Part shown: piece after piece, positions 7,152 to 56,241 of the stretch
Layout: each line of letters opens with the position of its first letter
How positions within the stretch are numbered: position 1 is the stretch's first letter
Sequence record: NC_029021.1
Reading direction: 5' to 3' (one strand)
Length of the DNA stretch: 60,747 bases
Source: Enterobacteria phage JenK1
Position numbers and translations under genes: made by a program
The notes under the pieces: model-generated
Database searches by the model: none
Seen by the model: the letters and a program-made list of their open reading frames with translations, nothing else
What the model was told of the DNA's origin: nothing

Positions 7152-7481
7152 ATGGCATTTCGAACAGACAAAAAGTTCTTGTTTCATATGATGCAACGTA
7201 ACAGACGTCGTCGAGATGCCACGTTGAACCCTGTAAGCGGTGTCCTGGGGTGGGTAACGCCGCCCCCGTCGACAGGTGTGGTAGATACCGATTACGTTAC
7301 AACGTGGCAGAATGGACAAACACCTTACGTTGTACAGGTCTTTAAAGATAAAGAATTGGTCTCACAGAATCAGTCTGATTTGCAGACCTTCACAATTAAC
7401 GAATCGTCTGCTGCAAGGTATGACATTAAAATTATAAGTGCAGACGGACAGATTCTTAATGCTACGATAGATATTGCTTGA
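7152..7481 (+). CDS. hypothetical protein (head-tail region)
   Basis: 109-aa ORF in a translationally coupled series between capsid and tail genes. Confidence 0.5.
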   Translation: MAFRTDKKFLFHMMQRNRRRRDATLNPVSGVLGWVTPPPSTGVVDTDYVTTWQNGQTPYVVQVFKDKELVSQNQSDLQTFTINESSAARYDIKIISADGQILNATIDIA

Positions 7482-25257: not shown

Positions 25258-25806
25258 ATGCAGAACATAAACAATGGTATGGGCGTTACTCAATTCAATG
25301 GTATGAAACCGAAAAGCTCCATCAGCGTTGGCGGCGTTGAATGGGCGTTACGTCGGGACGCTACCGATTCAACGACTGCGTTTCCGCACCAAAAGGTCAG
25401 CTGGCTAAATGCTGGTTGCGAACCTATGGCAGATGGTCGGGTTCATTATTGTTGGATAATGGGTGTGATACCACCAACGCCAGGTACTATCGAACGTCCA
25501 GTGAATGTGATGTATGTTGGCTTCCACCAGTTTAAGATCACAATAGCTCCGAACTCCATTAGCCAATCCGATCTCGATCGTATGCACGTATATGTGAGCG
25601 ATAACTCTGACTTTGCAGGTGAATTCGTAAGTAAGTTCTTAGGGCTGGAACCCGCGCAGCCTGTAGAATCCCGTGAGAGCATTAGCCCATGGCCACCAAC
25701 GATAGATCAGAGCGTGTTACACGCGAAACCGCAGACTCCAGAACCTCAGGCGCAACCACAACCGCAAACTGTGGTCAAGCCAGAGCAGAAAGGTGAAGTT
25801 AAATGA
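25258..25806 (+). CDS. hypothetical protein
   Basis: 182-aa ORF with Pro/Gln-rich C-terminus. Confidence 0.5.
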   Translation: MQNINNGMGVTQFNGMKPKSSISVGGVEWALRRDATDSTTAFPHQKVSWLNAGCEPMADGRVHYCWIMGVIPPTPGTIERPVNVMYVGFHQFKITIAPNSISQSDLDRMHVYVSDNSDFAGEFVSKFLGLEPAQPVESRESISPWPPTIDQSVLHAKPQTPEPQAQPQPQTVVKPEQKGEVK

Positions 25807-26072
25807 CGAAGAACGAAGGTATTGATAAAGTAGTTCAGCAACTGGCAATACGTGCCCATGTTGTAGTAGACGAAGGTCATTCCGAATTAGACATCCTAAA
25901 GTCCGCTTTCAATGACTTCAAATCCATGGGTTCTTTAACTGGTATTATGTCAGTGATGAGCTCAGGTAAATTAACTCAGCAACAAGTTGATGTTGCACAA
26001 CGTATTGCTGTAAAGGTCTTGGCTGTGCTAGGCATCCAAGAATCAAATAAAAAACAAAAAAAAGAAGAATAA
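25803..26072 (+). CDS. hypothetical protein
   Basis: 89-aa ORF; ATGA overlap with upstream gene. Confidence 0.45.
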   Translation: MTKNEGIDKVVQQLAIRAHVVVDEGHSELDILKSAFNDFKSMGSLTGIMSVMSSGKLTQQQVDVAQRIAVKVLAVLGIQESNKKQKKEE

Positions 26073-26108
26073 GCAGAGGCAACGTGCGGTATTTTGGGGC
26101 ATTTTATT

Positions 26109-26144
26109 GTGGGCCAGTATAAACGTATTGGCCCACTTTTTATT
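26109..26144. terminator. terminator at convergent junction of plus late genes and minus replication operon
   Basis: 8-bp stem gtgggcca / tggcccac, 12-nt loop, then TTTTTATT on plus strand. Confidence 0.55.
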
Positions 26145-28116
26145 AAGCGGCGTATGCGAGTTTTTCCAGCAATTTTTCCGCTTTAGCTATGTACACTTCG
26201 TGGTTGAGATCTGGCGGTAATTGGTCAGTGAGTTCCATCATTGGTTTACCCCCTGCTGTCTTACCAACACGACCTCCACTCTTGACTATTAGTATTTCAG
26301 GTACTTCTTCTTTTGTATAGTACCAGCGAACAACCTTACCTAACGGCTCACTATTCCACGCAGCTCCACCATTAGCTGTCTTGATACAAACAAACTTACG
26401 AATATCCTGACACTCTGTGATAGTTTTGGCAATTGGTGTACCGTCACGAAGCAGATTAACAACTGCATCCATAATGATCTCACCTTCTGCGTTTTTAGCA
26501 AGACCTGTCTCAGCGAACCAACCTTTACGCTTGGCTTTACCATCCGCTTTGATTGCAACGTAGTTGTTAACGTTTGCAGAGTTAAGGCGCAGGTACTGGT
26601 TCAACTCCATTTCAAAGCCAGTTGTCTCTTCCCACCACTTAATGATATCTGTCATTAATTGCTTCTTAGCTTTGCAAGGTTTAATAACAATACCGTCCGT
26701 GTTAGCACTGACGACCTGAATACCGTTAAGCTCCAGTGTTTCAATGAGCATAAGCAAAGCCAACTGGCCTGTCAATGTGGTCTGAATAATAAGGTGCGGT
26801 GCATACAGAATAGAGAACGGTGAACCGAACTTACCATAAGAACCGTTAATAACGATCTTAAGAGTTTGTGCAGTCTTATCGTCATGAGCCATCTTAGCTG
26901 CAATACGTCGTTCTACGATCTTAACAAAGATATCTATAAAGCGCGGGCCCAGGTGCTCAGGATACAGTTGCTGGTTAATGATACAGATTGGGTAGTATGA
27001 CGTTACGTCAGCATCCCACATCTCTTCATCTTCAGATGGTACAATCTCCATTAACTCTTCGCAGGAGTGCAGACCACCGATACCCATGTTGTAGGTTGTC
27101 TGATTGATTGTAAACTTCAAAGAGTTCATTGTAGATGGTTGCTTAATTTTACCATCTTCTGCAACTCGGAAGTAACTATCAAGCACAACCTGAAATACAG
27201 ACTTCATTAGTGGAGTTTGGAAACCTAACCACACTGGAGGATTGTACCTAAAGGTTCTGCCAACTTCCACCATTCCCTTCTGTGGTACGAAGCCCAGCAT
27301 TTCCTTCATTTCGTGACGGATTACAGCTTCTGCAATCTGTGCATCGGATTTAGAGCGAAGGTCCACTTTATACTCTTCACTCATAATCTCACGTAGATGG
27401 ATCTGTTCTTCCAGGGAGTTAAACAGAGCCATTGTTGTATCAAGGTCGTTAATACAGTAGAAGCGCACAATAGCGATCTGTTCTACGGATAACGCCCAAT
27501 GTGGTGGGAATGGTAAGTCCTGGAGCTTCTGCATGTGCATACGGCCACCATACAACTTCAGCGAACCGAAGCCAGGAGCTACCTCTTGAACGTCAATGTG
27601 GTCAATCCAAAACTGTTTTACACCAAAACTGTTAAGAATGTCCCACGGAGCCCACTCTTCCTGGATCATCCTGTCACTTGCTTCTTTCAGCTTGTCAACA
27701 GTTAAACCAGCAATGGCAAGGAATGTCATCGTATTATCGTAGTTTCTTGAGTTGAAACCAACAGTACGAAAGTTCTTCATTATCCATTCATATTTTTCCG
27801 TGTCGAGTGTCTGACCGGCAGTCATTTCTAGATAATAGACCTTACCGAACTTAACCCCTTTAAACGCCACAAGAAAATAGTTCTTGTAACATTCAATATC
27901 GTATACGAACGTTTCTTGCGCAAAATACATCTCCACTAATTCACCGTCTGTCATACGCGGATCATTAGCTGCAAAACGCATTGCTGCATCAAGACCTGGA
28001 AGGTAATCCGGGCGTTCCCATACCCTTTCAACTGGTTGACGTTTTACTTTCTGTTTCTTCTCTTTCTTAGCGGGAGGTAAATCCTCCCAAAAGAAACCAA
28101 TAGCATCTTTTCTCAT
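26143..28116 (-). CDS. DNA polymerase, family B, with 3'-5' exonuclease motifs
   Basis: 657 aa; Exo I YDIE, Exo III YCINDLD, motif A DVTSYYP, motif B KIVINGSYGKFG, motif C NTDG. Confidence 0.8.
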   Translation of the reverse strand: MRKDAIGFFWEDLPPAKKEKKQKVKRQPVERVWERPDYLPGLDAAMRFAANDPRMTDGELVEMYFAQETFVYDIECYKNYFLVAFKGVKFGKVYYLEMTAGQTLDTEKYEWIMKNFRTVGFNSRNYDNTMTFLAIAGLTVDKLKEASDRMIQEEWAPWDILNSFGVKQFWIDHIDVQEVAPGFGSLKLYGGRMHMQKLQDLPFPPHWALSVEQIAIVRFYCINDLDTTMALFNSLEEQIHLREIMSEEYKVDLRSKSDAQIAEAVIRHEMKEMLGFVPQKGMVEVGRTFRYNPPVWLGFQTPLMKSVFQVVLDSYFRVAEDGKIKQPSTMNSLKFTINQTTYNMGIGGLHSCEELMEIVPSEDEEMWDADVTSYYPICIINQQLYPEHLGPRFIDIFVKIVERRIAAKMAHDDKTAQTLKIVINGSYGKFGSPFSILYAPHLIIQTTLTGQLALLMLIETLELNGIQVVSANTDGIVIKPCKAKKQLMTDIIKWWEETTGFEMELNQYLRLNSANVNNYVAIKADGKAKRKGWFAETGLAKNAEGEIIMDAVVNLLRDGTPIAKTITECQDIRKFVCIKTANGGAAWNSEPLGKVVRWYYTKEEVPEILIVKSGGRVGKTAGGKPMMELTDQLPPDLNHEVYIAKAEKLLEKLAYAA

Positions 28117-29105
28117 AGACGAAATCCTACAATTACCCCACGTAGATTTTCACCATAAAAAATAATAGGAGTTGAAAGACCCCTTTCGTCCTTTTCATTG
28201 AAACGCGAGGCATCCCAGTCCGTTGCAAGTCCTTTCAACTGCATAATAAGATCTATATTATACACGCCAATTGACTTGGATTCACGGAACATTGCACTAG
28301 CACCATCCAACTCGTTGTAATGTGTGCGTACAACACCGTTTTCCATGTAAATACGCCCATCCCGCTCACAGAACGGTTTTATCTTTTCTAGGCAATTAAA
28401 AAGCTCAGTATCAAGCGTATAAACGTCGGACCCCTTTTCTGTGCGCTCAATTATCTTATCAATGTTAGGCCACTTTAATTCCAGCAATTGTGTACGCAAC
28501 CAGCAACCGTCTTCGTAGTGAAATGTCATACTGGTATCCGTACATTGAATTCTTACTGGTGGCTTTTTAATACGCAATAATTCTTTGATGGCCATACGTG
28601 GCACAACACAATCTACAGGGAATACAGCACCGAACCAATATTGTATAATACTAGCGTTGTTGGTCGCGTACATGCTGCCCTGTTTTACCAGCACGCCGCA
28701 AGACCACGGGCGGGAAGCATCGTCGCTTATAAATGGCGTTACGCGGCTTAAACCGTTGAGAAAAAGCTGACCGTCTATTTCGTGAATTGTTCCTTCTGGC
28801 TCTACGTGTGCAGTTGGTTTTTGAAGAGTATCCACACTAACCTTAAAGCCACCAGACTTAATGCTCAACTTACCGTTCGCCAACATTGTCATCTGTACAG
28901 CTTCATCACATGCTGCAATAGCTTTCAACATTGGTTCAGCTTTAGGTGTGCAGTCAATATTCAGCGGCACTGGACTACACAATGAAATAGTTCCGTTGAA
29001 CCCGCGCACAGTACCATCAACAATACGGAAGTGAGTTAAACCTTCCTGAAGTTCTTTCTTAGCTACAGAACCCTGAACAAACTTTAAAGCATCAAGTAAA
29101 TCCAT
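28113..29105 (-). CDS. hypothetical protein between DpdA and DNA polymerase
   Basis: 330-aa ORF, translationally coupled to polymerase; no motif recognised. Confidence 0.5.
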   Translation of the reverse strand: MDLLDALKFVQGSVAKKELQEGLTHFRIVDGTVRGFNGTISLCSPVPLNIDCTPKAEPMLKAIAACDEAVQMTMLANGKLSIKSGGFKVSVDTLQKPTAHVEPEGTIHEIDGQLFLNGLSRVTPFISDDASRPWSCGVLVKQGSMYATNNASIIQYWFGAVFPVDCVVPRMAIKELLRIKKPPVRIQCTDTSMTFHYEDGCWLRTQLLELKWPNIDKIIERTEKGSDVYTLDTELFNCLEKIKPFCERDGRIYMENGVVRTHYNELDGASAMFRESKSIGVYNIDLIMQLKGLATDWDASRFNEKDERGLSTPIIFYGENLRGVIVGFRL

Positions 29106-29113
29106 AAGTAACC

Positions 29114-30067
29114 TTATTCGTCAAATAAATCCTGGAGACGTTCGTTGAACTTCCCATTGTGGTTAGCAAGAATCATAGCGTTGACCACACCATACGCCCA
29201 TAAATTGTATGCAGCGCGTGATTCGTATATCGTTGAAAGTCGTTCGTATGTGAAACCTGACTCCTCTAAGTAGCGTAGAACGTTATTCTGTTCTATTTCT
29301 GAAAGGTTACAGATATGCTGTCCTTGATAATGGCGTGACGGGGACTTTTCGGATACCTGCATTGGGCCCCACTTAGGAGTTTCAATAGCACCAAACGCCG
29401 CAGATTGAATCCAGGAGGATGAGTCACAGGAGTACCACGGGTAACGCTCCATAAGCGGGCGGGACGTAATACCAAAGCCGTGGACTTTAATCTTAGCGCG
29501 TCCACTACCGTCTACAAGGTGTTTATCCCATACCCTGTCCAGCCATACCTGAAGTTGTTGTGTACTCGCTCCAACAAGACCACCGAGAGTGATATATTCA
29601 TAATTTCGCACATAATGGTCCAGGTATTCAAAAGGTTCACCGGCGTGGAAGCATGGTAAAGGTCTTACACCCCTGGCTTCCATCTCTTCCTGGTTGCGCC
29701 ACGTTTGAAGTGGATCTCCGATACCATCGAGTACAGAAGCCATAAGCGAACCATCTTCTACACGGATGATATCTATGTTTCGTTGGATGTAATCACAGTA
29801 TTCTTTAACCGATAACGTAACTCCCAAAGTGTAGGCTGAGAACGCCCCGGAGTCGAGGAATATCTTGGCCCCATCGGCACGCATGGCATCAACATAGGAT
29901 TGCTTTCCAACGTAGTGCCAGGATTCAAGAATGTTTGGAATATTCTCGACAACGCGTTTTTCTTGCTCGTTGAGTTTGACATAGCGGTTCATTCCTGGTT
30001 TATAGCTGTTCGTATATACGGCAGCCATATAAATCTGAAAGGTATAATCGATATCTTGTCTGTGCAT
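29114..30067 (-). CDS. dpdA: tRNA-guanine transglycosylase-like DNA 7-deazaguanine transglycosylase (DpdA-like)
   Basis: 317 aa; FLDSGAFS motif resembles the TGT DSGGFQ substrate-binding motif and YSCDSSSW resembles the catalytic Asp region; adjacent to the preQ0 pathway genes. Confidence 0.6.
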   Translation of the reverse strand: MHRQDIDYTFQIYMAAVYTNSYKPGMNRYVKLNEQEKRVVENIPNILESWHYVGKQSYVDAMRADGAKIFLDSGAFSAYTLGVTLSVKEYCDYIQRNIDIIRVEDGSLMASVLDGIGDPLQTWRNQEEMEARGVRPLPCFHAGEPFEYLDHYVRNYEYITLGGLVGASTQQLQVWLDRVWDKHLVDGSGRAKIKVHGFGITSRPLMERYPWYSCDSSSWIQSAAFGAIETPKWGPMQVSEKSPSRHYQGQHICNLSEIEQNNVLRYLEESGFTYERLSTIYESRAAYNLWAYGVVNAMILANHNGKFNERLQDLFDE

Positions 30068-30136
30068 TGTTCACCTAACAAATAAGCGCCCGTAGGCGCT
30101 TATTATATTAAAGATAATGTATGATTCGCAAATCAG

Positions 30137-30751
30137 TTACTTTTTACACGCTTCAAGAAATTCCCGACGCCATGTGTCACCAGTTACGTCCGGTAATACA
30201 CCATCGCCCAATGCAGTACGCCCGCGGAATGCCTTAGTGATGGTTGAGCTACCGCATACCTGTTTAATACCGCGCGACTCCATGCACATATGTTTTGCAT
30301 CGATGTAGACGCACACAGCTTTCGGCTCTAAATGGTCACGGATGGCGTCCGCAATCTGGTTAGTTAAACGTTCTTGGACTTGCAAACGTCGAGCGAAAGC
30401 ATCAACTACCCGAGATAACTTGCTGAGACCGACAATTTTTCCATTTGGAACATATCCAACCACCGCATGACCAATAATAGGAGCCATGTGATGCTCACAA
30501 TGACTATATACAGGGATATCGCGAACGATGACCATTTCATCGCAGTCTTCCCCACCATCTTCAAATGTCTTGAACAGGGATGCGATATCGACAGAATAAC
30601 CCCCGAACCACGTCTCAAATGCTTTAGCGACGCGCAATGGAGTTTCAACTAGACCTTCACGCAAGTCATCGCCACCTTCAATCAACTTTAAAATCTTTTC
30701 AATACTGTGCGAAATTTCTGCTCGGTTTGTCATCTTTGTAAATTCATTCAT
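30137..30751 (-). CDS. folE: GTP cyclohydrolase I
   Basis: YSHCEHHMAPIIG signature; ATG at 30751 chosen (track start 30787 is TTG and overlaps QueD). Confidence 0.85.
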   Translation of the reverse strand: MNEFTKMTNRAEISHSIEKILKLIEGGDDLREGLVETPLRVAKAFETWFGGYSVDIASLFKTFEDGGEDCDEMVIVRDIPVYSHCEHHMAPIIGHAVVGYVPNGKIVGLSKLSRVVDAFARRLQVQERLTNQIADAIRDHLEPKAVCVYIDAKHMCMESRGIKQVCGSSTITKAFRGRTALGDGVLPDVTGDTWRREFLEACKK

Positions 30752-30777
30752 GGTTTGCAGTTTCCTTGTGTGGTCAA

Positions 30778-31311
30778 TTATTTGCAATAGTTAACATGGC
30801 ATTTGGACGTTTCTTCAATGGTGCATTCTACCAATTCAACACCATATTGGTCAAGCAGTTGAGGACCAATTACGTCAACCATATATGCAGCTAAGTTTTC
30901 CGCAGTTGGGTTGAATGGTAAAGCTACCAAAGAATCAAAGAACGGATCATAATCTTCATCCGTTACTAAATTGTTCTCACGTGCAAACTTAGTCGATGCG
31001 ACAACAATGAGCGAATTAATTACGCTGTCTTGTTCCCAATGCAGGAACTTATGATCCCAATTATCTTCCAACCACTGGCAAAGCGTAGTTTTAACCACAC
31101 TGAAGTCGATAACGCGACCTACGTCATCCAGCGAACCTTCTAGAGCAAATCCACTTACAGACTTGACGTAACCTTCCGACAATGTTTTCTTCGGGGCAAC
31201 TTTAAAATGGAACTTATAGTTGTGGCCATGCAGGTGACGACATTTACTTTCATGTCCTACGACACGATGCCCAGCGCAAATCTCATGTGAACGAATAACA
31301 GTGTAACCCAT
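30778..31311 (-). CDS. queD: 6-carboxy-5,6,7,8-tetrahydropterin synthase
   Basis: CRHLHGHNY zinc-binding Cx4HGH motif; start at Met 31311 avoids overlap with upstream gene. Confidence 0.8.
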   Translation of the reverse strand: MGYTVIRSHEICAGHRVVGHESKCRHLHGHNYKFHFKVAPKKTLSEGYVKSVSGFALEGSLDDVGRVIDFSVVKTTLCQWLEDNWDHKFLHWEQDSVINSLIVVASTKFARENNLVTDEDYDPFFDSLVALPFNPTAENLAAYMVDVIGPQLLDQYGVELVECTIEETSKCHVNYCK

Positions 31312-31312
31312 T

Positions 31313-32728
31313 TTATTCCTCGCTTTCGTATTTAATAACTTCTTGTGCATTATTAATATTAAACGCAGTCCGACGCATCATGCAAGGGCCACAAGTACCG
31401 CAATGCAAATCCCCGTTACGGTAACAGCTCCAAGTGTGCTCCAACGGGGCCCCTAAACGCAGACCTGTAGCGACAATTTCGTGCTTCATTAAGTTACCTA
31501 CCGGCATGAGCACTTCAACGCGCTTACCGTCCCCTACAGCGAACGGTAACACTTGATTAAAGCGGTTAATAAACTCAGGCTCGTTGTCCGGATAGGCTCC
31601 AGCTTCTTCTAGGTTGTTACCAAGAACAATATAGTCGAAACCGTTAGCTTCTGCGTATGCAGTAGCAACAGAAAGCATTACAAGGTTACGAGCTGGAACC
31701 CATTCATGCGCGAATTCAGCGCCTTCTTCACCGCCAGCAATTGCAGCATCTTGATCAAATAACGGGCTATCTTTTTTATCGTAAATTGGAATTGGGAATT
31801 CAACTAATGGAACTTCCATCACTTCCGCAATCTTACGAATAGCATACAGCTCATTAGTTTCTGCACGACAACCATACTGGAAGTTAATCAGAGTAACATC
31901 TAAACCATTGGACTTACACATTTGAGCTGCTACTGTGCTGTCCATACCGCCACTGGCGACAACTAACGCACGTTGAGTTTGCTTATTTGGAATAAGATCA
32001 ACTTCATTGCACACATCAGTCGATGTGACCACATTACATGAATAAGGCTTCAGCATCTGCTTAATAGCGCGGGTTGGTAGCATGTCTTCCTGGCTGGCGA
32101 AATACATACCAGTATCAGTCTTACCGATCCAGATTGGACGATAATTACATGCTGTAAACACACATCCTGGAAAGGAATCATGTGTTGCAAGGATTGCGAA
32201 GCTACCTTTCAATTTGCGAACAACTTCATGAAACACACTGTACAGGTAATTAAAGTCAGACAAACACATTTCATCTGCTGAAAGTGTACATTCTGCCAAC
32301 TGTTCAACGATCGCAGCACTATCAATCTTAGTCTGTAGGGCATAGGTACGAAGGTCTTTATCGTTCGCAATAGTACCGTTATGAACAATAGTCCAACCAT
32401 CCATATGATACGGTTGCTGGTCCCACTCATTCTTGTCAACGACCCACTCTGTAGTCGGTTCAGCGCGAGCGTTACCAATCATTGTGAAGCTACCAATAGC
32501 TCCAGCATGAGATACAATGCGCCCAACTTTAACAAGACGTTCCAGCGATGTTTTCTTACCGACACTAACAATACGTTGCGGGTGCATACTGTGGTCACCA
32601 TGCGTAAAGCGTACACCAAGACCATCACGACCACGGCTGATACTAGCTTTAATAAGATCCTCAATGTCGTTACGGATAATAAGACTTTCAGGTTGACCGT
32701 TAGTAATAACACCAAAGATAGAGCACAT
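31313..32728 (-). CDS. queC: class-II glutamine amidotransferase fused to QueC-like PP-loop synthetase (Gat-QueC)
   Basis: Start at MCSIFGV (AsnB-type N-terminal Cys nucleophile); SGGMDS PP-loop; C-terminal WSCY...CGTCGPC...R zinc motif typical of QueC. Confidence 0.75.
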   Translation of the reverse strand: MCSIFGVITNGQPESLIIRNDIEDLIKASISRGRDGLGVRFTHGDHSMHPQRIVSVGKKTSLERLVKVGRIVSHAGAIGSFTMIGNARAEPTTEWVVDKNEWDQQPYHMDGWTIVHNGTIANDKDLRTYALQTKIDSAAIVEQLAECTLSADEMCLSDFNYLYSVFHEVVRKLKGSFAILATHDSFPGCVFTACNYRPIWIGKTDTGMYFASQEDMLPTRAIKQMLKPYSCNVVTSTDVCNEVDLIPNKQTQRALVVASGGMDSTVAAQMCKSNGLDVTLINFQYGCRAETNELYAIRKIAEVMEVPLVEFPIPIYDKKDSPLFDQDAAIAGGEEGAEFAHEWVPARNLVMLSVATAYAEANGFDYIVLGNNLEEAGAYPDNEPEFINRFNQVLPFAVGDGKRVEVLMPVGNLMKHEIVATGLRLGAPLEHTWSCYRNGDLHCGTCGPCMMRRTAFNINNAQEVIKYESEE

Positions 32729-32729
32729 A

Positions 32730-33491
32730 TTATTTACCTTCCTTAACCATTTCAATTTCACGCTCAACGGATGCAATAATATCGTTGAGGTCTTCCAGTA
32801 AGTCTTTATGACCGCGCTCACCCGCACACAGCACTTTCTTCAGTGCATGTTGCATGGGCCCACTGGTTACATTGAATGCTTTAATTACGTCGTACACGTC
32901 AACCCATACATCGATTTCGATTGGGCTACCGTTAAGGTCATGGGATTCAAAAGTTTTAATTTTGCGCATATATTTATTTGGACGTGGAGCTTTAATCTCC
33001 TGGATACAACCCTTGTCGATAAACGTTTCTTTAATGAATACTTCCGGATCGCCTTCTTTGTTACGATCAACTTTAAAGACGCTCGTAAGTACATCTTCCA
33101 TGATACTTGTTAATTTATGAGTGGACGTTGTGTGCTTCATGGTATTCGCTTCCGCTTCTTCTGACACTTTCTGACTTCTTCTAGCAGAAGCATTGATACG
33201 CCATTTGTAAAGTGCGTTACGTGGAGGTGTTACATGCGTGTTGTAGACCGTCTTTAAGTTCATAAGATCGTGTCCATCCATAGCTTCAACAAAAACAGTG
33301 AGTGCAGGACTACTATCGTTCAGAACATCCACCAAATATCCTTCCCGAATTACAGATGCAAGAGCTGCATGTGACGCGGCCTGAGAAACTGTGGTTACAT
33401 AATGTTTCACAAATCCGTCTTCATCAAACAGACACTGGTTTAACACATTTTCTGGAACAATTTCACCGAGTAATTGAACGTGCTTATTCAC
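32730..33491 (-). CDS. hypothetical protein embedded in 7-deazaguanine cluster
   Basis: 253-aa ORF between Gat-QueC and QueE, tightly coupled; no motif recognised. Confidence 0.55.
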   Translation of the reverse strand: MNKHVQLLGEIVPENVLNQCLFDEDGFVKHYVTTVSQAASHAALASVIREGYLVDVLNDSSPALTVFVEAMDGHDLMNLKTVYNTHVTPPRNALYKWRINASARRSQKVSEEAEANTMKHTTSTHKLTSIMEDVLTSVFKVDRNKEGDPEVFIKETFIDKGCIQEIKAPRPNKYMRKIKTFESHDLNGSPIEIDVWVDVYDVIKAFNVTSGPMQHALKKVLCAGERGHKDLLEDLNDIIASVEREIEMVKEGK

Positions 33492-33525
33492 AATAATTTA
33501 CCTTATTAGTTGAATATGTATAACT

Positions 33526-34314
33526 TTACTCTACACCTAAATATTTATGAATCTGCAATTGCACGATGTAATTGTGCTTCATTGCATATTTAACGACAGC
33601 TTGAGCGTTTGCTTTATTAGCATCGTCGTCCTGTTCATCCATAGGTTGAAGATAAATCTTACCTTTAAAGTGTACAGGTGGGCGTGCAATAAATGGTGTC
33701 GCACGGTGATCCAGTGCCTGCAACGGTAATCCATCTTCCTCGTTGACGTTTCCGCTTTTCATTACATATTTGAAAGCATCCGCTCGAGCGGAAACGCTAG
33801 GGTGAACCTTTGCTGCCTTAGGACTACATACTACCACACAGTTATAGTTGAGTTCACGCGGGATAGGCATAGTTCCGTTAGTTTCGACCTGTACGCGATA
33901 ACCTTTCATATCAATAAGGTAATTGATAAAATTAGCAACTTCAGGTTGACGGAAAGGTTCGCCGCCAGTAATGACAACTAAGTTAGTCTTGGCTTCACCA
34001 GTAACACGGACAATCTCTTGCCAAATGTCACCGTGGTTCATCTTCTTACGATTGGATGTATAGTTTGTATCACATCCTGGGCATTGCAGATTACAACCAG
34101 CTAATCGAACAAATACGGCAGGTTGACCACAAAATGGGCCTTCGCCTTGAATGGTATGAAAAATGGAATGTACGTCAAGAATACCACGTTCACGAACTAA
34201 CTTCTCAGGTTCCTGAGTATTAATAATTTTCATATGATTTCCAAATTTGGCTTGAGCCCAGTGGTGGGCGATAATGGCTTGTGCAAACATTTGAACCTCG
34301 GGGTAAGATAACAA
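33526..34314 (-). CDS. queE: 7-carboxy-7-deazaguanine synthase (radical SAM)
   Basis: CNLQCPGC radical-SAM Cx3Cx2C-type motif; 262 aa. Confidence 0.85.
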   Translation of the reverse strand: MLSYPEVQMFAQAIIAHHWAQAKFGNHMKIINTQEPEKLVRERGILDVHSIFHTIQGEGPFCGQPAVFVRLAGCNLQCPGCDTNYTSNRKKMNHGDIWQEIVRVTGEAKTNLVVITGGEPFRQPEVANFINYLIDMKGYRVQVETNGTMPIPRELNYNCVVVCSPKAAKVHPSVSARADAFKYVMKSGNVNEEDGLPLQALDHRATPFIARPPVHFKGKIYLQPMDEQDDDANKANAQAVVKYAMKHNYIVQLQIHKYLGVE

Positions 34315-34358
34315 AGGGGCAGTAAATGCCCCTTCTGAGTTTCCGAAGTATCTACAGA

Positions 34359-35183
34359 TTACTCTGCAGTTTTCTGAGACGGAATTTCTACGTTAGCGGC
34401 CGCTTGTGCAATATTAGCAGGTACTGGAACGGATACGCGACCAGTAATGCCCATGTATTTTTTCCAGCGAGCGTATTCCGCTTTAACGTTCGCTTCGTTC
34501 AGGCCTTTGTCCAGTGCAACAGGCAGAACGTAGCTGATCGGTGCAGTCTGACCCAGCTCCATGGTGACAGCGTCAAAGATATCCCATGCAGCACGGCACA
34601 GAGTACCGACACCAGGCTTACGAATACCGTTCTGTTCAGGCTCTTTCTTAGCTTCGCGTTCTGCTGCTTTACGAGCACGCTCTTCGTCCTGCAGACGTTT
34701 CTTCTCAGCGCGTTGTGCGTCACGTTGAGCTTTTTCAGCGGCCTTAGTGGCTTCGCGGGCAGCGGATACACGACCTTTAACATCTTTCAGAGTGGATTCA
34801 ATGGAGGAAACCAGATCTTCAGATGCTGCAACGGCAGTTTTCAGCTGATCGTTGTCTTTAACTTTACGTGCTGCCGCTTTAACAGCTTTCAGACCTTCTT
34901 TAGCGGTCTTCAGTTGAGCGGTAACTACGCCTTCAACTGCTTTAACTTCGTCCAGCAATGAACCTTCGTTCAGGGTCGCGAACTGTTCTTTAACAGCGGA
35001 CATAGCACCTTCGATCACATTGTAACCGGCAGTGGCTTCGTTCATTGCGGCGTCAACTTTAGCCTGCAATTCACGTGCTGCTTTTTCTTCAGCTTCACGT
35101 TTTTTCTTTGCTTCAGCTTCTTTTGCTGCTTTCTTTGCTGCTTCTTCTGCTTCCAGTTGTTCTGGAGTTTTCTCTTTAGCCAT
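34359..35183 (-). CDS. highly charged coiled-coil protein, probably abundant
   Basis: 274 aa, K/E/A-rich N-terminus, globular C-terminus; very strong host-like codon bias; strong promoter immediately upstream. Confidence 0.6.
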   Translation of the reverse strand: MAKEKTPEQLEAEEAAKKAAKEAEAKKKREAEEKAARELQAKVDAAMNEATAGYNVIEGAMSAVKEQFATLNEGSLLDEVKAVEGVVTAQLKTAKEGLKAVKAAARKVKDNDQLKTAVAASEDLVSSIESTLKDVKGRVSAAREATKAAEKAQRDAQRAEKKRLQDEERARKAAEREAKKEPEQNGIRKPGVGTLCRAAWDIFDAVTMELGQTAPISYVLPVALDKGLNEANVKAEYARWKKYMGITGRVSVPVPANIAQAAANVEIPSQKTAE

Positions 35184-35238
35184 GATTTAAATCCTCACAG
35201 TGTGGTTATTGGTTGTGAACTACGTTCTAAGTGGTTGC

Positions 35239-35267
35239 ACTATAACCCCTCTAAAAGAACTATGCAA
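35239..35267 (-). promoter_or_regulatory. candidate sigma70 promoter
   Basis: Minus strand TTGCAT - 17 bp - TATAGT, then GAGGA RBS for the 34359-35183 gene. Confidence 0.4.
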
Positions 35268-35279
35268 TATTTTAATTAA

Positions 35280-36002
35280 TTAATTTAAGCCACGTTCTTT
35301 TACCCAGACCCCTAATGTATTACTTGATGTATTACGCTTCACACCTTGTGCCTCTAAACGATCCATCATTTGTTTTCTAAGCTGTAGGATTTCCTTCTTG
35401 TCACGAGGTTCACCAGCTTCTTTCCACATTTCGTCAGCAACAGCGAAAATAATATCGCGAGTGCCGGCTGTACGCGACGTTGCGGCACGTTTTTCGTTTG
35501 CCGGTGTGCTAGTACCTTGCCGCTCTCTTGTCGGTGTCCATGCCCCTTGTATGCCCATATTTGTTTGTACGGTTGGGCCGTCAATGATGGTGGATTCCAA
35601 TGAACTATCATTCCGTACTTGAATATTAGGCTCCTCCCCCAAATCTGGAACAGAGCTGCCTTCGCGGTACATGCACTCACCCTCTTTATTACTAGCAATT
35701 GCCCAGTCCGCTTGTTCAGCCACATCCGCATCTATTACTGTCTCCGGTATTTCATTTAAAAAGTAATGGATGATCTTACTGATCATTTTCTTTGGATATA
35801 AAGCACCTTGCTTATTACCCGTTAAGTTGATGTACAAAAGCTGCATTTGCACATCATCAAACTCTTTATACAGTTCTTCAACTTCTAACGGAAGAACTAC
35901 AGAACTTTCGCTACAGCATAGAATTCCATACTCATGAAGACGTTGGAAGTTTGGATGTTTGGCTAACACCTGCATCCGATCATAATCAATTAAGACGTAC
36001 AT
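35280..36002 (-). CDS. hypothetical protein
   Basis: 240-aa ORF downstream of helicase. Confidence 0.5.
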   Translation of the reverse strand: MYVLIDYDRMQVLAKHPNFQRLHEYGILCCSESSVVLPLEVEELYKEFDDVQMQLLYINLTGNKQGALYPKKMISKIIHYFLNEIPETVIDADVAEQADWAIASNKEGECMYREGSSVPDLGEEPNIQVRNDSSLESTIIDGPTVQTNMGIQGAWTPTRERQGTSTPANEKRAATSRTAGTRDIIFAVADEMWKEAGEPRDKKEILQLRKQMMDRLEAQGVKRNTSSNTLGVWVKERGLN

Positions 36003-36022
36003 GTTAATCCTTCCAATTAAAA

Positions 36023-38026
36023 TTAAAACGGTATGTCGTCATCAAAATCTGGTGGTAGTTCTTTACCGTTACCAGTAAGAATAGGTTGATTAGACGTAGA
36101 ATGCAATACTGTCGTACGGGAATCAGTCTGCTCATCTTCATCAAACTTATTCGTATAACTTCCACCAAACTGGGACAGACCATTCATTGCTGCAATTTGT
36201 ACAACAGGACGTTCGTTTGTTGCTTCTTTCTTACCGAACTCGCTACCGTCATAACAACTATTCAACACTTCAGGGAACTTACCCTTCAAGTTGACATATA
36301 TGTGCGTCGGTACACGAAGCTGGCTGACCACATTGAGAGCTTCGTCAATGTTAGCTGGGATTGCCAAGCTGCAATGCTCGCGCCACCAGTTACGCGCTTT
36401 CTTGCCCGCAAAGCCAGTATGGAACAGGCAGATATATTGTTGGATAGTCTGTGAGCCACAAAGATAGTCGACACGAAGTGTTGGTGGTTTAGAACGGTCG
36501 CCCCTGTTCTCGTGGCGGTAGTAACTTACCATATCAACTTTCAATACCTCAGTGACCGGTAAATCATTCTTGATAATAGCTTTCGTACTAGCACTCGCCA
36601 TTAGTTTCTTCTCAAAAGTAAACTCATGACCGCAATAACCAGCACGGCACGCTTTATTATTTGTAATGGTATAGCCTAATCCTTGTAGATAGAGTATTTC
36701 TTCATGCGACATGCTACTTGTGTCGAATGGTTTTAACCCACCACAGAATCGAACTGACGCATGGTTCCATGTTTTACATACCGGGCATTCTTTAACAGGT
36801 GCAGCGGACTTTCCTTTCTGCCCTGGGCGCTTAGGAATTACAGGGTCATTAATAGGCCCAAGGCGTCTTGTGTTACCTGCATAGTCCAATACAAGACAGT
36901 TCTGTTTATGCGAAGCGGAGATAGCTTGCAAACGACCCTCTGTTGTGGTCAAATCAAAACCATCTGCATAATCAGGTCGTGTACCACGTCCAAGCATCTG
37001 AACCCACAAACGGGAAGATTGAGATGGTCGCATACCAATTATCAAATCAAGCCCCGGATGGTCAAAGCCTGTCGTTAATACGTTGTTGTTTGCTATTGCC
37101 TGTAAACGACCAGCTTTAAAATCAATAAGATACTGGTCACGCAAGGCTTTCGGTGTATCACCAGTTACAACTTCACAACTAATACCGCGCTCGTTGAGGT
37201 AGTCTTTGACATCTTTTGCATGGTCTACACCAGCACAAAAGACAAGCCAACTCATTCTATTCTCTTCTTCCGCAATACTAATCGCATCATCTAATAAATG
37301 GCGAGTTACATCAGGATCGTTTACAACCTTTTGAAGTTCGCTTTCAATGAACTCACCGCCTCGAGTATGAACACCACTTACGTCATACTCTTTCTTTGTT
37401 TTACGTGGTACTAACGGAACAAGATAACCTTCATCAATGAACCAGTTGAAGCACTCTACGGTACACGCGTTAAATACGATTTCATCAAATAGAGCGTTAG
37501 GCGCATAATCATCTTTGATGATAGAACCAAAACCAAGACGCCAACTCGTAGCAGTAAGACCGATAATCTTTAGATATGGGTTCTTTTCACGAATGTGCGC
37601 AAAGAACTTCTGATAACTTGTTTGCTGATTTGGGCTAATAAGGTCACATTCGTCAACTATAATAATATCAACGTCCTCGAAGTATTTAGCTTGTTTTGCA
37701 ACAGACTGAATACCTGCGAACGTTATCATTGCATTCTTATCCTTGCGACCCATACCAGCACTATAAATACCAGTCGGTGCTTCAGGCCACAACTTCTTAA
37801 ATTTATCGTGGTTCTGGTCTATCAATTCTTTTACGTGAGTAATTACCATCATGCGGGTACTACCCCAATTATCGTGAATTGTCTTTAATAGACCAGCAAT
37901 TACAAGGGACTTACCAGTCCCTGTAGGCAACAAGATAACAGGATTTCCTGACTTTTCACCATACTTGATGAAATAGCGCAATGTACTGTTTACAGCTTCT
38001 TGCTGATAATCACGTAGTTTGAACAT
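36023..38026 (-). CDS. superfamily 2 DNA helicase with SSB-like C-terminal tip
   Basis: Walker A LLPTGTGKS, DECD box, Cys-rich region; extreme C-terminus PPDFDDDIPF matches the E. coli SSB C-terminal tip. Confidence 0.75.
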   Translation of the reverse strand: MFKLRDYQQEAVNSTLRYFIKYGEKSGNPVILLPTGTGKSLVIAGLLKTIHDNWGSTRMMVITHVKELIDQNHDKFKKLWPEAPTGIYSAGMGRKDKNAMITFAGIQSVAKQAKYFEDVDIIIVDECDLISPNQQTSYQKFFAHIREKNPYLKIIGLTATSWRLGFGSIIKDDYAPNALFDEIVFNACTVECFNWFIDEGYLVPLVPRKTKKEYDVSGVHTRGGEFIESELQKVVNDPDVTRHLLDDAISIAEEENRMSWLVFCAGVDHAKDVKDYLNERGISCEVVTGDTPKALRDQYLIDFKAGRLQAIANNNVLTTGFDHPGLDLIIGMRPSQSSRLWVQMLGRGTRPDYADGFDLTTTEGRLQAISASHKQNCLVLDYAGNTRRLGPINDPVIPKRPGQKGKSAAPVKECPVCKTWNHASVRFCGGLKPFDTSSMSHEEILYLQGLGYTITNNKACRAGYCGHEFTFEKKLMASASTKAIIKNDLPVTEVLKVDMVSYYRHENRGDRSKPPTLRVDYLCGSQTIQQYICLFHTGFAGKKARNWWREHCSLAIPANIDEALNVVSQLRVPTHIYVNLKGKFPEVLNSCYDGSEFGKKEATNERPVVQIAAMNGLSQFGGSYTNKFDEDEQTDSRTTVLHSTSNQPILTGNGKELPPDFDDDIPF

Positions 38027-38977
38027 TTACTCACCGTAATAATCTGCTGCTTCGTATTGACCACATGCTGCCATCTGATCTTCCTTCGTTAATACACCTT
38101 CGGTTCCATCTGTGATGTATGCAGTAGCAGAAGCTAATTTTATTGCACATCTCCAGGTTCCATCTTCAAGCGGATAAGAGTGCTTACAGGTGCGGCAGTT
38201 AACTTCAGGCATCTTGTTGTTATGGCACACTGCTTTGTGGTCACACCATTTGCATTTATAGTAGGATTTACTTTCATTGATCTTAGGTGGTGGACATTCT
38301 GCCAGTGCAATTACAAATCCACGGTCTTTGTAGCGTTCCGCGGTTTCTTTATCAAATGGTACAAGCTCTGCCCAAATCTCGTCCGTGTTCTTATTAACTG
38401 CAATATAAAGAGCGGCTGGGAGCCCATAGTACAACATGTACTCCTGCATCTGAACATAGTGCTCCCATTTGGATTCCATCACACCATTAACGACAAGTTT
38501 CTTGAACGAATCGTTATTGTGCGTTTTCATCTCCGTCAAGATTGGTGTAGAAGGTTGTGGCATGTCGGGGCAACCAATGACAATACCATCTATCGCAGAG
38601 CCAAAGTGCCCGTTGAGATAGCTAACTCGATACTGGCTGCCATTTTCGTCTTGTTGGATGACTTGCATACCAGCGGTAAGTAATAAGGCCACGAAGCGGC
38701 CTTCTTCAAGATGCCCGCGATTGAATAGACGTAATGTTTTACCGTTAAAGTGCGGTTTTGTTGCCCATCGCCATCCGTAGAAGATTGCTCTGCTACACTC
38801 TTGCCCGATAAGACTAATCCCAAGATGCGAACGGAATCCGCCATCTCCCTCTCGATATGCGTCTTCAATATGTGGTAATACTTTTCCGAGCCATACTCTG
38901 TAAGCGGATCCTTGATCTCGTTCAATACAGTCATTGAATAACTCCATTGTCTTAGTAGCAGGATAAAAATGTGGCAT
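38027..38977 (-). CDS. PD-(D/E)XK exonuclease (RecB/Cas4-like) with C-terminal Cys cluster
   Basis: Motifs AIDGIV, LTEMK, QMQEY plus multiple C-terminal Cys (CKWCDHKAVC...CRTC). Confidence 0.55.
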   Translation of the reverse strand: MPHFYPATKTMELFNDCIERDQGSAYRVWLGKVLPHIEDAYREGDGGFRSHLGISLIGQECSRAIFYGWRWATKPHFNGKTLRLFNRGHLEEGRFVALLLTAGMQVIQQDENGSQYRVSYLNGHFGSAIDGIVIGCPDMPQPSTPILTEMKTHNNDSFKKLVVNGVMESKWEHYVQMQEYMLYYGLPAALYIAVNKNTDEIWAELVPFDKETAERYKDRGFVIALAECPPPKINESKSYYKCKWCDHKAVCHNNKMPEVNCRTCKHSYPLEDGTWRCAIKLASATAYITDGTEGVLTKEDQMAACGQYEAADYYGE

Positions 38978-55890: not shown

Positions 55891-56241
55891 ACATACATAG
55901 ACAGCACATAGTGGGCAGGTGGATAGTAACAGATGTAATTATACTGGACGGTATAGTATAGTCATGTAATAGATAGCACACTAATCAAATAAAAAATAAT
56001 AACGCGTGTAACAATAAACAACGTTATAGTAGAGCGCATGACAGTCACATCACGTAACAATCACCTCACTGACGATCACGGGACGTTATAGTAACGCCGC
56101 GGGGCGGCTCTTAGATCTCTGCCAAGGATTCATCGTTTGTAGATTGTCTCGTCACTAGACACTTTATATCCTCACCTCACCTGCCCTATATTGTTCGTAT
56201 AAAGTTAATTCCGTATGTAAATACTCGAGAGGAGATCTGTT

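Follow-up and report, generated by a model that had tools for sequence, protein, structure and literature searches.

Hypermodification of DNA with 7-deazaguanines is an important means by which phages counter host defences; it blocks most type II restriction enzymes and can impair Cas9, as seen in vitro for dPreQ0. Among the closest described systems, the virion DNA of phage 9g carries 2′-deoxyarchaeosine (dG+) at 25–27% of dG and blocks 71% of more than 200 type II enzymes (PMC5567051). The 9g genes folE, queD and queE complement E. coli ΔfolE, ΔqueD and ΔqueE, respectively; 9g dpdA alone yields dPreQ0 in plasmid DNA, and dpdA together with gat-queC yields dG+ at 9–18% of G in plasmid DNA, a ΔqueC host included (PMC6884629). 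DpdA-mediated insertion is post-replicative (PMC10516641), and no phage replication protein is needed for DpdA and Gat-QueC to modify plasmids in E. coli (PMC6884629; PMC10516641). In phage CAjan, the DNA contains dPreQ0, not dG+, at GA and GGC motifs (PMC6884629; PMC10484667). Recently described glycosylase defences target 7-deazaguanine DNA and act on 9g (bioRxiv 10.1101/2025.10.29.685425).

A 9g-like gene cluster in JenK1

The window analysed here, the 60,747 nt of Enterobacteria phage JenK1 (NC_029021.1), is the complete genome of a Nonagvirus (9g-like; subfamily Queuovirinae), and the cluster at positions 29114–34314 is, as judged by sequence, the ortholog of the 7-deazaguanine DNA-modification cluster of phage 9g. 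Six ORFs, all on the minus strand, occupy this interval. A preliminary description had listed five co-oriented pathway genes, all of which are present, but had missed the sixth, a 253-aa ORF. The interval is 96.2% nucleotide-identical to 9g across 100% of its length, and the six genes are shared with 9g (9g_00003 to 9g_00008) in the same order and orientation and with identical annotated starts, encoding proteins that are 92.9–99.7% identical; this likeness supports the earlier proposal that a 7-deazaguanine replaces guanine in the genomic DNA. None of the amino acid differences from 9g falls within the motifs that we checked. The flanks are also common to both phages, with the polymerase and clamp on one side and two hypothetical genes and the helicase on the other. 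The cluster differs from that of 9g by point substitutions and by an indel of ~29 nt in the spacer between queE and the 253-aa ORF, the interval spanning 5201 bases in JenK1 versus 5230 in 9g.

Fifteen further records that cover at least 80% of the interval are 90–96% identical to it, all of them from 9g-like (Nonagvirus) coliphages or Salmonella phages, and the remainder of the window is 93–98% identical to Nonagvirus genomes. In ChristophMerian and other Nonagviruses, small additional ORFs separate queD from gat-queC and the 253-aa ORF from queE; JenK1 and 9g have none of these. A third, cryptic copy of the pac-site repeat was reported inside the 9g tgt/dpdA gene (Tsai 2017); in JenK1 dpdA, the 12-bp core of this repeat had no match at up to 1 mismatch.

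The cluster lies among polymerase, helicase and ligase genes, as previously described: its same-strand neighbours encode the polymerase, the clamp, the helicase, a Cas4-like exonuclease, an SSB-like protein and a Sak4-like protein, and the ATP-dependent ligase, RNase H and primase are likewise on its strand. Scans of positions 25800–38200 for promoters and terminators returned counts at or below shuffled expectation, so that operon boundaries cannot be claimed. The earlier statement that the phage has no tRNA genes also held. ARAGORN made a single call, a tRNA-Ala at 26546–26619 on the plus strand, antisense within the DNA polymerase ORF; Rfam reported no tRNA at the gathering threshold over the entire window and none at E ≤ 10 within a 601-base segment spanning the call, which we therefore regard as a false positive. 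The window contains 18 EcoRI, 7 BamHI and 24 EcoRV sites.

Enzymes of the precursor pathway

Three genes encode the first steps of the pathway. folE (30137–30751, minus strand; longest ORF from a TTG at 30787) encodes a 204-aa GTP cyclohydrolase I that matches Pfam PF01227 at 4.5e-62, exceeds three NCBIfam FolE cut-offs (TIGR00063, 193 bits against a cut-off of 181.6 bits), contains the motifs CEHH and HMCM and is 96.1% identical to 9g FolE, with about 8 amino acid differences. queD (30778–31311, minus strand; longest ORF from 31350) encodes a 177-aa 6-carboxytetrahydropterin synthase that matches PF01242 at 1.8e-20 and phrog_2389 at 1.2e-55, with scores under the curated cut-offs of the QueD-specific NCBIfam models, and is 98.9% identical to its 9g counterpart. 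queE (33526–34290, minus strand; longest ORF from a TTG at 34314) encodes a 254-aa radical-SAM 7-carboxy-7-deazaguanine synthase, 99.6% identical to 9g QueE, with matches to Radical_SAM PF04055 (8.4e-11), phrog_2076 (9.7e-70) and five QueE NCBIfam models (1e-21 to 1e-26, all under their cut-offs) and with the motif CNLQCPGC (Cx3Cx2C). Pfam, NCBIfam, PHROG and motif evidence thus identifies the three proteins as phage-encoded FolE, QueD and QueE whose catalytic motifs are intact. The diagnostic motifs named in the preliminary description were recovered for FolE (CEHH), the QueE cysteines, the QueC PP-loop and zinc site and DSGxF; that of QueD had to be corrected from Cx4HGH to Cx3HGH (CRHLHGH).

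The fourth pathway gene, gat-queC (31313–32728, minus strand), encodes a single 471-aa protein that joins QueC to an N-terminal class-II glutamine amidotransferase domain with a cysteine directly after the initiator methionine, a predicted preQ0 and archaeosine synthase. The longest ORF reaches a GTG at 32827; we chose the ATG that begins MCSIFGV because it is the annotated start in 9g and because the alignment to phrog_10428 (2e-287) begins there, at residue 34 of the long ORF. In long-ORF numbering, Pfam QueC PF06508 matches residues 286–491 at 2e-55 and GATase_7 matches residues 130–250 at 1e-6, with GATase_6 below cut-off. Besides the N-terminal Met-Cys of class-II amidotransferases, the protein has SGGMDS and the C-x7-C-x2-C-x2-C motif of QueC. 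It is 97.7% identical to the 9g protein, with about 11 amino acid differences, and its amidotransferase domain shares 97–99% identity with the 9g and HdK1 domains.

The DpdA1 transglycosylase

The gene dpdA (29114–30067, minus strand) encodes a 317-aa protein of the DpdA1 subfamily, a predicted DNA guanine transglycosylase that would exchange G in duplex DNA for preQ0. It differs from 9g DpdA by one amino acid (99.7% protein identity) and carries DSGAF at residue 72, HGFG at 196 and CDSSSW at 214. In an alignment of 95 DpdA1 representatives that are 31–72% identical to JenK1 DpdA, H196, S213 and D215 do not vary and D72-S-G-A hardly does; the conserved histidine noted in PMC6884629 is H196. 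Placement in DpdA1 follows from near-identity to the experimentally tested 9g enzyme (PMC6884629; PMC10516641) together with H196, D215 and D72.

The preliminary description had called this protein TGT-like, a label that our searches did not bear out. The sole profile match among the libraries scanned was to phrog_887, ‘queuine tRNA-ribosyltransferase’ (3.9e-98), with no Pfam match even at E ≤ 10 and none in NCBIfam or PADLOC. Searches of the PDB by phmmer and with two profiles, one based on 38 close homologs and the other on the 95 representatives, found no TGT or DpdA chain, and 0 of the 95 representatives matched PF01702 in a Pfam scan. With hhalign, E. coli Tgt aligned at a probability of 2–7% and over the DSGxF region only, where the DpdA motif aligns with TDSGGF of Tgt. 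The predicted core has β and α elements in alternation, as a TIM barrel would, and a fold search returned generic TIM barrels, with TGT first appearing at rank 43; the CxCxxC zinc motif is not visible in the sequence. Every attempt to link DpdA by sequence to TGT or to bacterial DpdA (Pfam, NCBIfam, PADLOC, phmmer, PDB profiles and hhalign) thus failed, and neither the family profile nor solved TGT/DpdA sequences placed it in the TGT superfamily (PF01702). A DpdA–TGT relation has been reported in the literature from HHpred with deeper profiles.

Profile searches, proposed earlier as a check on the cluster, returned the expected families for FolE, QueD, QueC and QueE but no Pfam match for DpdA. 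Taking lack of homology as refutation, as the preliminary description did, would wrongly fail DpdA, which is Pfam-negative yet near-identical to a validated enzyme. The predicted function of JenK1 DpdA rests on this near-identity to the tested 9g protein (PMC6884629), and the gene should be named as a DNA transglycosylase rather than a ‘queuine tRNA-ribosyltransferase’.

Predicted product and alternative explanations

The cluster is almost certainly a 9g-type system that hypermodifies genomic DNA with dG+. Along the proposed route, FolE, QueD and QueE would convert GTP through H2NTP and CPH4 to 7-carboxy-7-deazaguanine, which the QueC half of Gat-QueC would turn into preQ0. DpdA1 would take guanine out of already polymerised duplex DNA and put in the 7-deazaguanine base, and the amidotransferase half of Gat-QueC would give the ammonia that turns the nitrile into the formamidine of archaeosine, before or after insertion. 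Because the cluster has Gat-QueC instead of a plain QueC, the predicted product is the dG+ of 9g and not the dPreQ0 of CAjan (PMC6884629). About a quarter of phage dG would be replaced, and most type II restriction enzymes would be resisted. Gene content, motifs, families and near-identity to 9g were computed here, and the 9g literature supplies the enzyme activities and the nature and amount of the base; we infer that JenK1 behaves as 9g does.

Two other uses of the pathway can be weighed against this reading. A genome ending at preQ0, CAjan-like and with dPreQ0, would need an amidotransferase half that is inactive or unused on DNA; DpdA alone does insert preQ0 (PMC6884629), and Pfam detects the GATase domain weakly (GATase_7, 1e-6; GATase_6, under cut-off). 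However, the close similarity of this domain to those of 9g and HdK1, the retained N-terminal nucleophile cysteine and the finding that the 9g fusion gives dG+ with little or no dPreQ0 (PMC6884629) make such an outcome very unlikely. Even less probable is a role in translation, with the cluster serving to enrich host tRNA in queuosine or archaeosine while the phage infects. Phage clusters of this type were first proposed to work in this way, an idea that Kulikov 2014 discusses (PMC4276943) and that draws on the origin of four of the genes in the tRNA queuosine/archaeosine precursor pathway and on the tRNA-ribosyltransferase label that PHROGs and GenBank still attach to the DpdA gene. Yet 9g dpdA fails to complement E. 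coli Δtgt and 9g gat-queC fails to restore tRNA-Q in ΔqueC, both acting on DNA instead (PMC6884629); JenK1 DpdA is nearly the same protein as the tested 9g enzyme and leaves the Pfam TGT model unmatched, and JenK1 has no credible tRNA gene.

The position of the cluster, directly beside the genes for polymerase and clamp in a single co-oriented run, would also suit synthesis of the modified base as a deoxynucleoside triphosphate that the phage polymerase then builds into the new strands during replication. We give this scheme next to no credence: the cluster contains no kinase, nucleotidyltransferase or phosphoribosyltransferase, plasmids copied by host enzymes are modified by DpdA and Gat-QueC (PMC6884629), and every deazaguanine phage encodes DpdA, from which the field infers post-replicative insertion (PMC10516641). 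Replacement of only about 25% of G is also a better fit to a sequence-selective enzyme than to replacement of a nucleotide pool. For the 9g-type system preferred here, siting among replication genes would reflect co-expression, not polymerase incorporation; co-transcription with the replication module would let new DNA be modified as it appears. The earlier suggestion of modification during replication accordingly agrees with the location of the genes but not with published work, which puts insertion after replication (PMC6884629; PMC10516641).

The 253-aa ORF between queE and gat-queC

The remaining ORF (32730–33491, minus strand), packed between queE and gat-queC, is the ortholog of 9g_00007, to which it is 92.9% identical. 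It matches phrog_18443 (function unknown) and has no match in Pfam, NCBIfam, PADLOC or the PDB; an AF2 model (pLDDT 62, pTM 0.41) had no fold match at E ≤ 0.001. We found 63 homologs in total. Those at 37–42% identity occupy the same slot between queE and gat-queC in 4/4 contigs inspected, with stop and start codons that abut or overlap there in all four. The C-terminal domain, which is conserved, also turns up across many other groups of phages, in hundreds of records. In other Gat-QueC phages, the slot is empty (PaMx25) or holds small ORFs without evident similarity (Vid5 and PSTCR4); we considered whether these ORFs, or the CAjan ORF beside queD, might be homologs of the C-terminal domain, and obtained no convincing alignment.

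Instead of being a passenger, the 253-aa ORF could be a lineage-specific accessory gene of the dG+ pathway, which we consider unlikely. At the DNA, its product might then influence DpdA or Gat-QueC, with possible roles in, for example, targeting, efficiency or the order of amidation and insertion. Retention of the slot in the four homologs inspected, with a family or fold undetectable, speaks for an accessory role; against it, 9g dpdA and gat-queC suffice to produce dG+ in E. coli (PMC6884629), the Gat-QueC phages PaMx25, Vid5 and PSTCR4 have no evidently similar ORF in this slot and the C-terminal domain is widespread in other groups.

Comparison with known systems

The JenK1 cluster is already known in kind, being another Nonagvirus copy of the reference cluster, and brings no new biology. 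Its value lies in annotation, as a flag that the JenK1 genome is probably dG+-modified, with consequences for restriction mapping, for some sequencing chemistries and for the host range to be expected in phage therapy.

Of the two models originally named, 9g was the right one, and CAjan, with its stand-alone QueC and dPreQ0, was not. CAjan (Seuratvirus) also belongs to the Queuovirinae and shares the order dpdA-folE-queD-...-queC-...-queE beside the polymerase and clamp, with FolE and QueD DNA about 75% identical to that of JenK1. It encodes a stand-alone QueC (240 aa, from a gene of 723 nt) and a putative preQ0 transporter and, unlike JenK1, whose QueC is fused to a GATase domain, has neither the amidotransferase fusion nor a full-length 253-aa ORF.

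The bacterial Dpd system (DpdA/DpdB/DpdC, Salmonella Montevideo) begins alike, with DpdA swapping guanine in DNA for preQ0. Bacterial DpdA uses two catalytic aspartates (PMC10164549) and requires the DpdB ATPase, less than 0.1% of G is modified and DpdC turns the product into dADG, whereas the phage enzyme forms the separate DpdA1 subfamily and does not need DpdB (PMC6884629; PMC10516641). When the six cluster proteins were scanned with PADLOC, no Dpd model other than QueC matched, and neither a DpdB ATPase nor DpdC was found among them; QueC and QatC matched Gat-QueC, pVip matched QueE weakly, and DpdA and the 253-aa ORF drew nothing. Finally, the bacterial TGTs and archaeal arcTGT (PF01702) have a base-exchange mechanism in common with DpdA but act on tRNA, whereas the substrate of DpdA is DNA.

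Gene content and family assignments

In the ORF list of the window, positions 29114–34314 are filled by six closely spaced minus-strand ORFs: a DpdA-like protein (29114–30067, 317 aa), FolE (30137–30751, 204 aa), QueD (30778–31311, 177 aa), Gat-QueC (31313–32728, 471 aa), an unassigned ORF (32730–33491, 253 aa) and QueE (33526–34290, 254 aa). This confirms the 7-deazaguanine cluster that the preliminary description had placed here; its five named genes are all present, although the extra 253-aa ORF brings the gene count to six. Position 34314, at which the described interval ends, corresponds to the TTG where the longest QueE ORF starts. Automatic ORF listing extended FolE, QueD, Gat-QueC and QueE upstream of the ATG starts that we adopted, which are those of the 9g annotation and the points at which PHROG profile alignments begin. 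The ATG start gives Gat-QueC a Met-Cys N terminus; in class-II amidotransferases, an N-terminal Cys is the obligatory nucleophile.

Profile searches matched the FolE, QueD, QueC and QueE families as proposed, but not DpdA. FolE matched PF01227 (4.5e-62) and passed three NCBIfam FolE cut-offs, QueD matched PF01242 (1.8e-20), and Gat-QueC comprises a GATase_7 domain (1e-6) followed by a QueC domain (PF06508, 2e-55). QueE matched Radical_SAM (8.4e-11) and phrog_2076 (1e-69); its E-values against five QueE-type NCBIfam models ranged from 1e-21 to 1e-26, but none of these matches reached the model cut-off. The sole match of the DpdA-like protein was phrog_887 (3.9e-98), labelled ‘queuine tRNA-ribosyltransferase’, with no sequence match in Pfam, NCBIfam, PADLOC or PDB. 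The motifs CEHH, CNLQCPGC, SGGMDS, Cx7CxxCxxC and DSGAF were all recovered; the QueD motif exists too, but as CRHLHGH (Cx3HGH), not with the Cx4HGH spacing first given.

Predicted DNA modification

The interval matches Enterobacteria phage 9g (KJ419279, 3007–8236) over its whole length at 96.2% identity, and 15 further records that each cover ≥80% of it at 90–96%; all 15 are 9g-like (Nonagvirus) phages. Protein identities to 9g are 99.7% for DpdA, 96.1% for FolE, 98.9% for QueD, 97.7% for Gat-QueC, 92.9% for the 253-aa ORF and 99.6% for QueE, alongside 99.5% for the polymerase and 99.1% for the clamp. Of the two halves of the window, the structural one shares 97.8% identity with phage HdK1 and 96.1% with 9g, and the replication one 93–95% with BRET, JenP2 and others; by these sequence similarities, the window is a complete, mosaic Nonagvirus genome (Queuovirinae).

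The 9g genes have been characterized experimentally. Its folE, queD and queE restored queuosine synthesis in the matching E. coli mutants, dpdA did not complement Δtgt, and ΔqueC cells given gat-queC did not regain tRNA-Q (Hutinet et al. 2019, PMC6884629). By itself, 9g dpdA produced dPreQ0, the preQ0 form in DNA, in plasmid DNA; together with gat-queC it produced 2′-deoxyarchaeosine (dG+) at 9–18% of plasmid G, also in a ΔqueC host but not in ΔqueD (PMC6884629). The 9g enzyme has been assigned to the DpdA1 subfamily (2023 NAR study of additional 7-deazaguanine derivatives, PMC10516641). In 9g virions dG+ amounts to 25–27% of dG, and the DNA resists 71% of the >200 type II enzymes examined (PMC5567051; Tsai et al. 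2017); the window holds 18 EcoRI, 7 BamHI and 24 EcoRV sites.

From this published work on near-identical genes, we infer that the phage would exchange around a quarter of its G for dG+, by base exchange on duplex DNA; amidation of the nitrile may come before or after the base is inserted (PMC6884629). The earlier interpretation of guanine replacement is therefore supported by near-identity to the 9g cluster, with refinements. Incorporation by the polymerase during replication is very unlikely, because all such 7-deazaguanine modifications have been argued to be post-replicative (PMC10516641). Co-expression with replication genes would instead allow prompt modification.

In Pseudomonas phage iggy, the target motif is GA. 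GA contexts make up 26.46% of all G on both strands of the whole window (30.3% for GA plus GGC), to be compared with the 25–27% of dG in 9g (PMC5567051), and weakly suggest a GA-only DpdA target as in iggy; the suggestion is weak because the restriction sites that Tsai et al. found resistant shared no obvious motif (PMC5567051). The 9g DpdA motif was described as unknown in 2023 (PMC10484667).

Relation of DpdA to TGT

We examined the TGT link of DpdA as the one claim of the preliminary description that profile searches did not directly back. Searching the PDB with a profile built from 38 DpdA homologs (70–87% identity) gave nothing relevant. The family is large, with 6239 representative clusters at E ≤ 0.001 in an exhaustive HMMER search; across 95 of the best-scoring representatives, which share 31–72% identity with the window protein, the residues H196, S213 and D215 do not vary, and D72-S-G-A, D114, G162-G163 and G197-F198 are nearly invariant, a spacing that we take to resemble the TGT catalytic layout. 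The deeper profile of these 95 retrieved no TGT or DpdA chain from the PDB, none of the 95 matched PF01702, and hhalign against E. coli Tgt aligned the DSGxF stretch alone, at a probability of 2–7%. The AF2 model is moderate (pLDDT 63, with a poor C-terminal third) and consistent with a TIM barrel; generic TIM barrels lead its Foldseek search, in which the first TGT chain ranks 43rd (E 0.016), although TGT chains have the highest query TM-scores, 0.40–0.42. Profile, PDB and hhalign comparisons thus did not recover TGT superfamily membership, which is based on published HHpred and structural work (PMC6884629; PMC10164549). The missing link does not weaken the predicted function of DpdA, as that prediction rests on 99.7% identity to the tested 9g enzyme.

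The 253-aa ORF

This ORF has only 63 detectable homologs, and family and fold searches, including an AF2 model, gave no assignment. Homologs at 37–42% identity occupy the same slot in all four contigs inspected, between queE and a 468–476-aa Gat-QueC, with stop and start codons that abut or overlap; by contrast, Pseudomonas phage PaMx25 has no ORF in this slot, and Vid5 and PSTCR4 have ~65-aa ORFs of no evident similarity there. The N-terminal ~130 residues are confined to Nonagvirus-like phages, and the C-terminal 55–80 residues form a domain shared by 753 phage records that span many phage groups (pattern VDVYDxI...QHxxKKxL..G.RGHKD...II.S..RE.E). Because two 9g genes, dpdA and gat-queC, are enough for dG+ in E. 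coli (PMC6884629), the ORF is probably not essential to the chemistry.

Genomic context

One long minus-strand block encloses the cluster, running from DNA polymerase, clamp, the cluster itself, two ORFs without assigned function and helicase through a Cas4-like exonuclease, an SSB-like protein, a Sak4-like protein and an ATP-dependent ligase to an HNH endonuclease, RNase H, dUTPase, RusA and primase. The replication genes share this block with the cluster, and locating the cluster within the replication operon is right as far as description goes; transcription units are not claimed, because promoter and terminator pattern counts were at or below shuffled expectation.

The two conserved ORFs without assigned function sit between queE and the helicase: a 274-aa ORF (34359–35183, minus strand; phrog_11298) with a lysine/alanine/glutamate-rich N terminus, and a 240-aa ORF (35280–36002, minus strand; phrog_7864). 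Both are kept in 9g, ORFs of like size stand at this position in two related contigs (L005 and L008), and at this position Vid5 has an ORF whose annotation notes similarity to 9g_00010. A G+C-rich hairpin with a 9-bp stem (34313–34335, minus strand; GAAGGGGCATTTACTGCCCCTTT) lies in the short spacer that separates queE from the 274-aa ORF. Ahead of the cluster, this hairpin may serve as a weak terminator or as a structured RNA element; its tail is not clearly T-rich and regional terminator-like counts do not exceed shuffled expectation. A strong 12-bp-stem hairpin followed by TTTTT (26109–26136, plus strand) lies at the boundary between the structural genes, on the plus strand, and the end of the polymerase gene, on the minus strand; it coincides with a sign change in GC skew and is probably a terminator dividing two convergent modules.

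Tsai et al. 2017 (PMC5567051) mapped the pac site of 9g. Its 12-bp core, SRYCRCGGGRCG, occurs in two exact plus-strand copies 21 bp apart (56074–56085 and 56095–56106; 0.06 expected by chance), and 56074–56106 is probably where terminase recognizes and cleaves the DNA. In 9g, a third, cryptic copy has been reported within the tgt/dpdA gene; no such copy was found in the window at ≤1 mismatch.

ARAGORN called one tRNA-Ala(TGC) at 26546–26619 on the plus strand, antisense within the DNA polymerase ORF. Rfam gave no tRNA at the gathering threshold and none at E ≤ 10 around this call, which is most likely a false positive. With these negatives and no tRNA genes found in 9g by Kulikov et al. (PMC4276943), the statement that the phage carries no tRNA genes stands.

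Comparison with 9g and other Nonagviruses

Cluster order and neighbours are identical in 9g, in which the spacer between queE and the 253-aa ORF (7386–7447) is ~29 nt longer than that of the window (33492–33525). ChristophMerian and other Nonagviruses differ in carrying two or three extra small ORFs in this spacer and at the queD/gat-queC junction, and both places are hot spots for insertion. The JenK1 cluster belongs to a system described previously and is essentially its reference example.
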